The notes below the pieces were generated by a model. The model was given only the letters and a program-made list of their open reading frames with translations. It did not search any database and was not told the origin of the DNA. 64,000 nucleotides of DNA. Origin: Escherichia phage WPEC4. The stretch lies in sequence record PV682947.1; one strand, given 5' to 3'. Of this stretch, positions 43,050 through 46,000 are shown piece after piece. Within the stretch, counting starts at the first letter, position 1; each line of letters begins with the position of its first letter. Position numbers and translations under genes: made by a program.

Positions 43050-46000
43050 TGAGTAAGTTTACATGGGATATTGAAGCAAACGGATTGTTGAATAATGACA
43101 CTATCGATTATTTAGCTAGTCCTTATCGTCTCAAAGACACATTTCAAATGCACTGTATTGTCTTAGAGAACCATGAAACAGGAGAAATAGTAGCTTTCCA
43201 CGATGGCCCTAAGTATATTTTTGATGGGCGTCCTTACGAAGAATCAGATGGTAAATACACGTATGTTCTTAAAGAATATGTGGTGCAAGATTACACACAT
43301 TTTCAACTAAAAGATTTCCCAGATTTTATTAATCATGAAGGTTATTTTAAAGACAAGCCTGAATATTTGGTTGAAATGGCTGTGGCTCACAACGGTATCA
43401 ACTATGACTGGTTGGCTACAAAACTGTTTTATGGATTAGATTACAGTGTTAAATATAACACGTGGGGCAAAAATAAGGTAAAACTTATTGACTCCCTGAT
43501 TTTGAGTAAAGTGTTAAACCCAGATCGAAAGATTGAGGGCAAATCAGGACATAGCTTGGCAGCACTTTCTCGAAAGGCAGGTGGTGATGTAAAAATAGAT
43601 TTTCGTAAAGAAATTCCAGAAGAAGATCGCTTTAAGACTTTTGCTGCGGATATGCTTTATTACTGTATCTATGACAACAAAGCCAACACGAGTGTATATA
43701 ATTACCTTATGGAAGAATGGGGTGATTATGATAAATGGGAAGGTCCGTTTGAACTTGAACAACGTGTAGCAGACATTATTACACGCCAGGAACACCGTGG
43801 ATTTGCTTTTAACATGAAGCAAGCAGAAGAGAACCTTGCTTTTTTGGATGCAGAAATGGAGCGTCTTCGTTTACTCGTTGAGCCTATTTTGCCACCTAAA
43901 CCAGCAACAAAAGGTTATCTTAAGGCTTTTATTCCACCTAAGTTGCAAATTAAAAAGAACTTAGAGCCAACTAACCATATGATCAATTTTGCTAAGAAAC
44001 ATGATGGTCATTTGGAAGAGAGGGATGGGGATTGGTGGTTAGTGATGTTGGGGAAAGAGTGGAAACTGCCAGTTGCAGCAGATGAGCCTTTGTGTGATCC
44101 TAATATCCCTGCAACATTGAACGATACTACCCATATTAAAAACTGGCTTGTAGGATTAGGTTGGGTACCGTCTGAATATAAAGATAAAGACTTGACGCTT
44201 AAATCTGGCACAAAGATTAAAAAGAGTGAGGAAGAACTTCAGAAAGGTATTCGAGCTTACGTTGAGCAAACTCTATCTTCTAATTTTTGTCAGGACCGTT
44301 GTGATCATCTGGAGTGCACACCGGAAACCTTGGAAAGGAAGATTCAAGAGCGTATAGCAAAAGGTAAAGGTCGCGGTCTTAAAGTATTGACTAACCCATG
44401 TTTTACCAAAGGTCAGGAAAAAGAAATTTGTCCTAACCTGCAAGCTTTGGGTGAGAAATTTCCTTATGCTACACAGATTGTAGAATACTTAACGTATAAG
44501 CATCGTAGGAACTCTATTTTAGGTGGTGGTGCTGATTGGGAAGAAGATGAAGAAGATCAAGAATACGATAAAGGTTTCTTAGCCGCAGTAAGGGCGGATG
44601 GTCGTATTCCTACCCCAGCCGCTACATGTGATGCTGCAACCTCTCGTATGAAACATAGATCTGTAGCTAATATTCCTCGTGTCACATCTTTGTTTGGATG
44701 GGAGATGCGTAACTTGTTTGGTGTAGAGGTTCCTAAATACTTCCAGATCGGCTACGACTTCGACTCTTTGGAAGCAAAAATTGAATCGCATTACTGTGTG
44801 CCGATGGATGCTCAAGCTTTGACTCGTAAAGGTTGGGTAGGATATCACGACCTGAAGGAAGGGGATGAGATTTTAGGGTACAATGCTGAAACAGGTCTGA
44901 AAGAATGGACTAAAGTAAAAGGTAAGGTCTTCTATAAAAATAGTAAGACGTTTGAGATTAAAGGGAAATCACACACTTACCGTGCAACAGCAGATCACCG
45001 TTGGTATGTTAATACCCGTAGTAAAGGGAATACTTATGTGCCTAAAGTCAGAACAACTGCCGAGCTTTGCACAGGAGATAACATTATTTGTAATGCTCCA
45101 TTTAACATGGAACAAGATCAGGTAAATAGTTTAACTTCTGTTCAACAAGGTAAATGGGATGTTCCGTGGGTAGAACGTGTAGTCAATATGTCTCATGCCG
45201 AGCGTGTAGCTTTCTTGGAAGGTTTCTTGATTGCAGATGGTTACTGGCACGAACATAAACAAAAACCTGTTTGGCGTTGGGCGCAGAACCCAGGTGAACT
45301 TTTTGAAGCAGCTTTAACTGCCTCGTACCTGGTGCATGGAGGCAATATCTCTGTAGCTTTCAATACAAAAGAGCAGAAAGTAAAAGTGGCAACATTGACT
45401 AACCGCTCTCACATTCCTGTTCAAAGTTTGACTATTGAAGAGTGGGGTGTAGAGGATGTTTGGTGTCCACAAACAGAACTTGGTACGTGGGTCATGCGTC
45501 AGAAAGACTGCATTACCATCACAGGAAACTGTTGGCGGTACGAGCCGGAGCCACACGAATATTGTAACGCTCTGTTGTTAGAGAAACCTAATGATGTTCA
45601 CACAATGATGGCAAAACGTATCACTGAAACTATTGGACGTAAATTTGAACGTAGTCCTGCTAAATCTGTTAAGTATGGTATTACCTATGGTGCACAAGCC
45701 GACAAGGTTGCTAAAACAATTGGTAGCGACAAGTTTACAGGTCAATTGGTGTTCGATGCTTTCTGGGAAGCTGCATTCCCATTGGCGCGTCTTAAAGAAC
45801 GTTTAAACGATTTCTGGGTTAAGACTGGTAAACAATATGTTTTGGGTATTGACGGTCGTAAGGTTCCTACTCGTTCTGCTCACGCGATTCTTAACTCTCT
45901 GTTCCAAAGCGGTGGGGTTATCTGTGCTAAACGTGCAATGGTTATTTATGATGACATGATCGAAGAAGAAGGGCTAAGTGTTGACTTCTTTAAAGATGAC

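Follow-up and report, generated by a model that had tools for sequence, protein, structure and literature searches.

The closest described counterpart of the element treated here is the DNA polymerase intein of phages PaulScherrer (MZ501100; BASEL phage Bas60, bas60_0044) and SD2 (PQ821640), whose GenBank records carry the label 'intein-containing DNA polymerase precursor' together with mat_peptide features. In this study, a stretch of 64,000 nucleotides (nt) of Escherichia phage WPEC4 (PV682947.1), hereafter the window, was analysed, and coordinates refer to it unless another record is named. The T7-like family A DNA polymerase open reading frame (ORF) of the window (43049-46381, + strand, 1110 amino acids (aa) in the ORF list) contains an insert of 245 aa at 44795-45529, which has the same site and the same length as the PaulScherrer/SD2 intein and is 97.6% identical to it in amino acids and 92% in nucleotides. 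The hosts differ, because WPEC4 is a phi92/phAPEC8-like Escherichia coli myophage of the genus Phapecoctavirus (Stephanstirmvirinae), whereas PaulScherrer belongs to the genus Justusliebigvirus and has exteins that are only 78-81% identical in nucleotides to those of the window. The element is therefore already known, annotated as the same intein in public records of sister phages, and it is an ordinary kind of feature. On the basis of fold, profile and comparative evidence, together with the GenBank annotation, we are confident that 44795-45529 is a bona fide intein, predicted to be splicing-competent. What is added here is that its odd features belong to a very large intein family under selection. 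The BASEL paper names inteins only in its annotation methods, and a 2024 paper claims that no inteins have been reported from coliphages; our literature search found no paper describing the WPEC4 polymerase intein and nothing relevant on family A polymerase inteins.

Several other described systems resemble the WPEC4 intein in part. Class 3 inteins, including MP-Be DnaB and those of Mycobacterium chimaera and M. smegmatis DnaB-1 (PDB 6RIX, 6BS8), are located in a helicase or ATPase P-loop, whereas the WPEC4 intein is located in a polymerase and differs from them by an invariant Cys1, Gly in place of His at position G:6 and Cys at +1. AceL NrdHF (PDB 6ZGQ), one of the best structural matches of the WPEC4 intein, lacks His at G:6 and F:13; unlike the WPEC4 intein, it is a split class 3 intein that starts with Ala, has an MCT triplet and contains no endonuclease domain. 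PI-SceI, PI-PfuI, PI-PkoII and TliVMA are inteins of 360-540 aa with two LAGLIDADG domains that form a monomeric nuclease, often with an extra DNA-recognition region, and only half of such an arrangement is present in WPEC4, the half equivalent to the second motif. I-CreI, I-MsoI and I-CeuI are free-standing, intron-encoded enzymes with pseudo-palindromic sites (PMC2655683), whereas the WPEC4 unit is embedded in an intein and its target lacks such symmetry. Finally, the intein of mycobacteriophage Bethlehem gp51 (RDF) also has a penultimate Gly and is active, and replacing this Gly by His led to precursor accumulation (PMC5050341); it belongs to another host protein and lineage and is described as class 1 without a Trp/Cys/Thr (WCT) triplet.

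Part of the evidence for an intein is comparative. The polymerase gene is 100% identical in WPEC1, WPEC2 and WPEC6, whose records label the whole ORF 'DNA polymerase I', and 97-98.5% identical in many Phapecoctavirus genomes. The full query is covered by 33 of the 128 matching records, and many others are approximately 98% identical over 78% of it, in two pieces. Five intein-free relatives were fetched (tuntematon, ABPW7, Schickermooser, KKP 3954 (KKP3954) and ETEC-TG), and their polymerases are 865 aa long, with ESHY-CWRY in place of the ESHY-[245 aa]-CWRY of the window. The window and the intein-free alleles thus differ by an exact indel of 735 bp, with exteins that are 97.5-98% identical (97.5% in nucleotides for the N-extein against tuntematon), and the empty-site DNA of tuntematon reads ...GAATCACACTAC/TGTTGGCGGTACGAG..., where the slash, here and below, marks the junction. 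The block is exactly 735 bp in all six intein-bearing alleles compared (window, ZCKP1, Ro121c4YLVW, 10C3, PaulScherrer and KP13-16). Because ACTGT borders it on both sides, alignment alone leaves the boundary ambiguous by one codon; intein chemistry and the family alignment place it at Cys1...Asn/Cys+1. The intein feature of the PaulScherrer GenBank record (2504-3238 in L001, MZ501100) is one codon off, reading VPMD...GNC. An assembly artefact is ruled out by the presence of the element in 34 independent phage records, at 90% identity or more by tblastn.

Removal of the insert also restores the host protein. The N-extein (43049..44794, 582 aa; all polymerase features are on the + strand) comprises the 3'-5' exonuclease region and the polymerase domain through motif A, and the PHROG match phrog_17 covers polymerase aa 2-585, ending at the N-terminal junction. 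The motif A region, GYDFDSLEAKIESHY (44750..44794), ends at this junction and aligns with GIDASGLELRCLAHF of T7 gp5. The intein, Cys1-Asn245 (44795..45529, 27.9 kDa), follows directly and in frame, and its translation reads CVPMDAQALT...ATADHRWYV...FLEGFLIADGYW...VWCPQTELGTWVMRQKDCITITGN, with a Cys codon after it. This Cys+1 (45530..45532), the trans-esterification nucleophile, opens the C-extein (45530..46381, 283 aa plus stop) and is the same Cys as in the ESHY-CWRY of the intein-free alleles; motif B, RSPAKSVKYGITYG (45650-45691), lies inside the C-extein, and motif C further downstream. The 865-aa protein spliced in silico has one continuous match to PF00476 (DNA_pol_A) at 504-764 with 51 bits, whereas the match of the unspliced precursor is split into two stretches with 43.8 bits. 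A 245-residue stretch of the spliced protein across the junction aligns gap-free with T7 gp5 (phmmer E=1.9e-17), pairing gydfdsleakieshy/cwryepepheycnall with GIDASGLELRCLAHF/MARFDN--GEYAHEIL, and thus reproduces the flank alignment of EYCNALL with T7 EYAHEIL that an earlier reading of the sequence alone (hereafter the sequence-only reading) had offered. The strings quoted in that reading and its 245-aa insert are all present in the translation at the positions given, and its precursor length of 1110 aa agrees with the ORF list. Its account of the spacing between motifs A and B stands for the 245-aa insert; the separation itself is approximately 285 aa (245 aa of intein and approximately 40 of extein), and the T7 spacing, given as approximately 25 aa, is approximately 35 aa by alignment.

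The fold of the insert supports the same interpretation. An AlphaFold2 model built on a 27-sequence alignment has a mean predicted local distance difference test (pLDDT) of 93.6 and a predicted template modelling score of 0.90; it supersedes a model from an 8-sequence alignment, in which the pLDDT of the insert was below 50. In this model, residues 1-100 and 205-245 form a HINT domain. The N-terminal lobe (aa 1-100, 44795..45094; model strands E7-98, pLDDT >93) carries block A, CVPMDAQALTRKGW, with Cys1 at 44795-44797, and block B, T65-A-D-H68-R-W70 (44987-45004). The C-terminal lobe (aa 205-245, 45407..45529) consists of blocks F and G, VWCPQTELGTWVMRQKDCITITGN, with Cys224 (F:4) at 45464-45466 and Thr243-Gly244-Asn245 at 45521-45529. 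The splicing residues Cys1, Thr65, His68, Asn245 and Cys+1 are all in place. The sequence-only reading, which had proposed an intein located between the polymerase motifs A and B, with a TxxH in block B, a LAGLIDADG motif, a terminal Asn and a Cys at +1, is thus upheld by fold, profile and comparative evidence. A few results weigh against this conclusion. The insert alone barely matches curated models (Pfam Intein_splicing at E=0.007, below threshold; Pfam LAGLIDADG_3 at E=0.15) and has no NCBIfam or PHROG match, its phmmer hits against PDB sequences are marginal (E=0.07-0.9), and the searchable literature gave no report of splicing, mass or cleavage for this protein. Moreover, both of the usual helpers of Asn cyclisation are missing, since G:6, where His is common and not obligatory, is Gly244, and F:13, under the class 3 numbering of block F that we infer, would be Trp232; cyclisation would therefore rely on other residues. 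Because direct scans of the insert were sub-threshold or empty, a family profile was needed, and the one built from 27 homologous inserts matches the solved inteins Spl DnaX mini-intein (E=4e-6), NrdJ-1 (3e-5) and AceL NrdHF (9e-4), as well as a BIL domain (E=6e-4). Like the exact indel and the T7 gp5 alignment, the match at E=4e-6 lies far beyond what chance would give.

When 1.84 billion cluster representatives were searched exhaustively with the profile, 9,369 family members were retrieved at E<=1e-3, of which 694 reach E<=1e-30. Their host proteins are diverse and, in the phage collection, include polymerases, tape-measure and portal proteins, TerL and NrdA. The family is thus very large, mainly borne by phages and metagenomes, little studied, and poorly modelled by curated profiles. 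Its signature is C1-V-P...T-x-x-H-x-W...V-W-C-P-x-T...T-I-T-G-N, followed by S, T or C. Conservation was counted on 156 proteins (9 homologues from the first search plus the best profile hits) aligned to the family hidden Markov model, with the members aligned at each column as denominators, and is somewhat inflated because the sampled proteins are top-scoring hits. Cys occupies position 1 in 164/164 members and F:4 in 163/164; B:7 is Thr in 165/166, B:10 His in 166/166 and B:12 Trp in 157/166; G:5 is Thr in 162/164, G:6 Gly in 163/164 and G:7 Asn in 164/164. The +1 residue is Ser in 87, Thr in 46 and Cys in 31 (Ser/Thr in 133/164). Across the 27-sequence alignment, which spans 29-48% identity, C1, T65, H68, C224, N245 and the +1 nucleophile are all kept. 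The modal size class is 239-263 aa (74 of the 93 measured members), and exactly one LAGLIDADG motif is found in 73 of these 74. A larger class of approximately 13 members (299-336 aa) mostly has two such motifs, its two members of 299 aa have one motif plus an extra insert, and four members of 142-163 aa are mini-inteins. In the metagenomic protein P0015 (884 aa), two family inteins lie 32 residues apart, each with Cys1, VWC or AWC, ITGN and one LAGLIDADG-like motif.

These figures change the standing of two features that the sequence-only reading had taken as atypical. A penultimate Gly was read as a possible sign of degeneracy, yet nearly all aligned family members have it; a single LAGLIDADG motif was read as a possible sign of decay, yet the one-motif form of approximately 245 aa is the modal one, and its Asp-Gly and Gln are invariant with a ratio of non-synonymous to synonymous rates (dN/dS) of approximately 0.04. 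The suggestion of a mini-intein, meaning a splicing domain only of about 130-170 aa, is ruled out by the length of 245 aa and a folded inserted domain of 80-100 aa, against 142-163 aa for the true mini-inteins of the family. Furthermore, active phage inteins whose penultimate residue is Gly, Lys or Ser occur in nature, and putting His back in place of Gly impaired splicing (PMC5050341). Because the odd features are family hallmarks, purifying selection acts on the element and Gly-bearing phage inteins are active, it is neither degenerate nor a mini-intein. The penultimate Gly, the Trp/Cys/Thr triplet and the half-size endonuclease domain are hallmarks of the family and not signs of decay.

Sequence comparison points to spread of the intein by lateral transfer. 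It is polymorphic among phages that are 98% identical in the polymerase gene. Between the window and PaulScherrer, nucleotide identity is 77.6% in the N-extein and 80.8% in the C-extein, whereas it is 92.1% in the intein; among identical residues, 79% of the codons are identical in the intein and 54-58% in the exteins. Because the intein is more alike between the two genera than the exteins are, it would have moved between lineages after the polymerases diverged. In a sliding window, identity to PaulScherrer is 93-100% from approximately 44880 to 45530 against a background of approximately 75-85%. The first approximately 85 nt of the intein (44795-44880) are approximately 80% identical to PaulScherrer, as the exteins are, and the rest 92-100%. 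This pattern suggests a recombination breakpoint inside the intein and not at its edge.

With regard to how the insert would act, we propose that translation of the polymerase gene yields a 127.6-kDa precursor, in which the 245-aa insert would fold into a HINT domain and bring Tyr582/Cys1 and Asn245/Cys+1 together. A thioester would form at the N-terminal junction, the N-extein would then be passed to Cys+1, and Asn245 would cyclise and free the 27.9-kDa intein; an S-to-N shift would leave the native ESHY-CWRY bond in a 99.7-kDa polymerase of 865 aa, the length found in intein-free relatives. The polymerase presumably depends on splicing for its activity, since the insert directly follows catalytic motif A. 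A permanent accessory domain, or a domain of the BIL or Hedgehog type that cleaves without splicing, would also occupy such an insert, and BIL and Hedgehog domains, which have the HINT fold as well, both occur among the structural matches. However, the whole domain is missing from the polymerases of 98%-identical relatives, the insert has the C-terminal Asn and the +1 nucleophile that all aligned family members share, and cleavage not followed by ligation would leave an essential polymerase severed between its motifs A and B. These domains are rejected on the intein-free close relatives and the invariant Asn and +1 nucleophile, and we regard them as very improbable; the outcome that the sequence-only reading had named as fatal to an intein, an accessory domain conserved in related polymerases, does not occur because close relatives lack the segment. 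The class of the intein is a more delicate matter. Trp70, Cys224 and Thr243, which the sequence-only reading did not mention, stand at B:12, F:4 and G:5 and make up the full class 3 triplet, with the class 3 spacing of His-x-Trp, a Cys 21 residues before Asn, and Thr-x-Asn, in exact register with MP-Be DnaB (H65, W67, C320, T339, N341) and Mch DnaB1 (H65, W67, C124, T143, N145). A class 3 route, in which Cys224 attacks the Tyr582-Cys1 bond and forms a block F branched thioester before transfer to Cys+1, with Cys1 not initiating, would be in keeping with the near-invariance of this triplet; it also fits the prevalence of Ser/Thr at +1, which is typical of class 3, and the class 3 structures among the best fold matches of the insert model. 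By contrast, an invariant Cys1 argues for its use, and position 1 of class 3 inteins is a variable non-nucleophile; in addition, the family profile has no sequence match to the DnaB class 3 inteins, and the Cys+1 of the window is rare in class 3, where Ser or Thr is expected and one Cys exception is known. Working definitions of class 3 require that position 1 is not Cys, Ser or Thr (PMC2807308, PMC3196547, PMC7891396), and the intein is not filed under class 3 for this reason. Initiation at Cys1, as in class 1, is favoured by the invariance of that residue and appears somewhat likelier than initiation at Cys224, even though F:4 is Cys instead of the Asp usual in class 1. A relay between Cys1 and Cys224, or the route started by Cys224, is a live alternative, and the latter, taken as set out above, seems to us possible without being probable. 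Tori and Perler (2011) are reported to have widened the class 3 definition and to have shown that inteins with a WCT triplet and Ser1 or Cys1 follow the class 3 route, which is not taken as evidence here. As a tentative and rather unlikely extension, the clade may pair an invariant Cys1 with a full class 3 triad and an invariant Gly, either as a two-cysteine relay or as a nucleophile-bearing progenitor of the kind proposed for the origin of class 3 in phages, and add a homodimeric single-LAGLIDADG mobility module.

The inserted LAGLIDADG-domain segment (45164..45406) raises a similar choice, that between a nuclease and a domain of some other function. The motif FLEGFLIADG (45212-45241) contains Asp148-Gly149, and Gln164 (45284-45286) aligns with an active-site Gln of I-DmoI, which we take to be Q42. 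These residues are invariant in the 27-sequence alignment, although members are only 20-47% identical within the domain. A profile of the domain gives weak matches in the PDB (E 0.07-0.4), to the motifs of TliVMA and I-DmoI, and therefore the fold assignment rests on the model. The single half-domain evolves under purifying selection, with a dN/dS of 0.04 against PaulScherrer; the corresponding value for the N-terminal HINT lobe is 0.02, and the C-terminal lobe has no non-synonymous change. Over the whole intein, 53 synonymous and 6 non-synonymous changes separate the window from PaulScherrer. In the comparison with KP13-16, replacements in the endonuclease region sit mostly in the linker at aa 105-123, outside the fold. 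Judged by this conservation, the half-domain probably serves in homing during mixed infections, and the simplest way would be for two inteins to form a homodimer. Single-motif LAGLIDADG enzymes are normally homodimers on pseudo-palindromic sites (PMC2655683). In this respect the evidence is unfavourable, because pseudo-palindromic symmetry at the empty target site does not exceed background (at most 5-6/11), which lends no support to a classical homodimer site, and the flanking polymorphisms carry no consistent co-conversion signature; the two synonymous differences between the window and tuntematon, at -7 and -4, are not associated with the presence of the intein across 11 alleles. An intein that splices but whose LAGLIDADG domain is no nuclease, being a structural remnant or serving in folding or DNA binding, and that spread by ordinary recombination between co-infecting phages, would account for both of these results. 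It would also account for one domain per chain where every solved intein endonuclease matched has two, for the two motifs in the longer family members, and for our literature search, which found no report of a single-motif intein endonuclease. On the other hand, such a domain would hardly be expected to keep its catalytic Asp-Gly and the I-DmoI-aligned Gln at such low identity, nor to show so low a dN/dS; the one-motif form is the modal architecture and not a one-off deletion, and the patchy distribution and transfer between genera fit active homing. We consider a non-nuclease domain conceivable and worth keeping in mind, and we retain homing as the probable function. Two other LAGLIDADG-like regular-expression matches in the window (55282 and 59969) lie in tail-fibre/baseplate ORFs and are chance matches.

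A second insertion site for this family is found in the same gene. In nepoznato, nieznany, ukendt, AV126 and phiWec187, the motif A intein is absent, and a related intein of approximately 324 aa, 32% identical, lies in motif B (2501-3472 of L003, MN850571, for nepoznato); the equivalent site of the window, 45650-45691, is intact. The nepoznato-type intein has two LAGLIDADG motifs and the junctions KYG/C...ITLTGN/CTYG, and it shares the signature of Cys1, Trp, Cys, Thr and Gly-Asn. The motif A site of these phages reads ESHY-TWRYDNPDH, with Thr for Cys and strongly diverged flanks. Many family members are also located inside motif B of other family A polymerases (P0009, P0025, P0092, P0103 and others), with junctions AKAH/C...TGN/TF...YG, only a few residues away from where the nepoznato intein lies. 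Motif B of PolA is apparently a hotspot at which inteins of this family insert repeatedly. The motif B intein is also present in four unannotated records of approximately 146 kb, MG065639, MG065645, MG065656 and MG065689, which bear the names 'Campylobacter phage A150/A145/C3/A110a', and it matches the window intein at 32.1% over 972 bp (tblastn), as in the E. coli phages. The Campylobacter host label of these records seems doubtful.

Two observations concern the surroundings of the gene. The GTG start of the polymerase (43049) overlaps by 1 nt the last stop-codon base of a DNA N6-adenine methyltransferase ORF (42255-43049), and this overlap, at 43047-43051, suggests translational coupling of the methyltransferase and the polymerase. 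Elsewhere in the window, 10 tRNA genes are clustered on the + strand at 28068-29993 (Met, Arg, Ser, Asn, Thr, Gly, Gln, Pro, Ile and Met), and the tRNA-Asn(gtt) among them is 86 nt, unusually long for Asn and equal to the adjacent tRNA-Ser.

Most public records of these therapeutic-candidate coliphages miss the predicted removal of approximately 22% of the 1110-aa ORF, and this intein family escapes the curated models of Pfam, NCBIfam and PHROG. If a single LAGLIDADG half-domain does act as a homodimer here, it would be an arrangement for which our literature search found no counterpart among inteins. Because both Cys1 and the block F Cys are conserved in the family, it is a natural setting in which to test which of them initiates splicing, and it could reveal how Asn cyclises when the G:6 His and, under class 3 numbering, the F:13 His are missing. 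Furthermore, if the polymerase needs splicing for its activity, splicing would be a possible control point in replication. Because the intein is polymorphic in presence and absence, sister phages carry the motif B intein, and transfer has occurred between genera, these phages may provide a convenient E. coli system for the study of intein homing.

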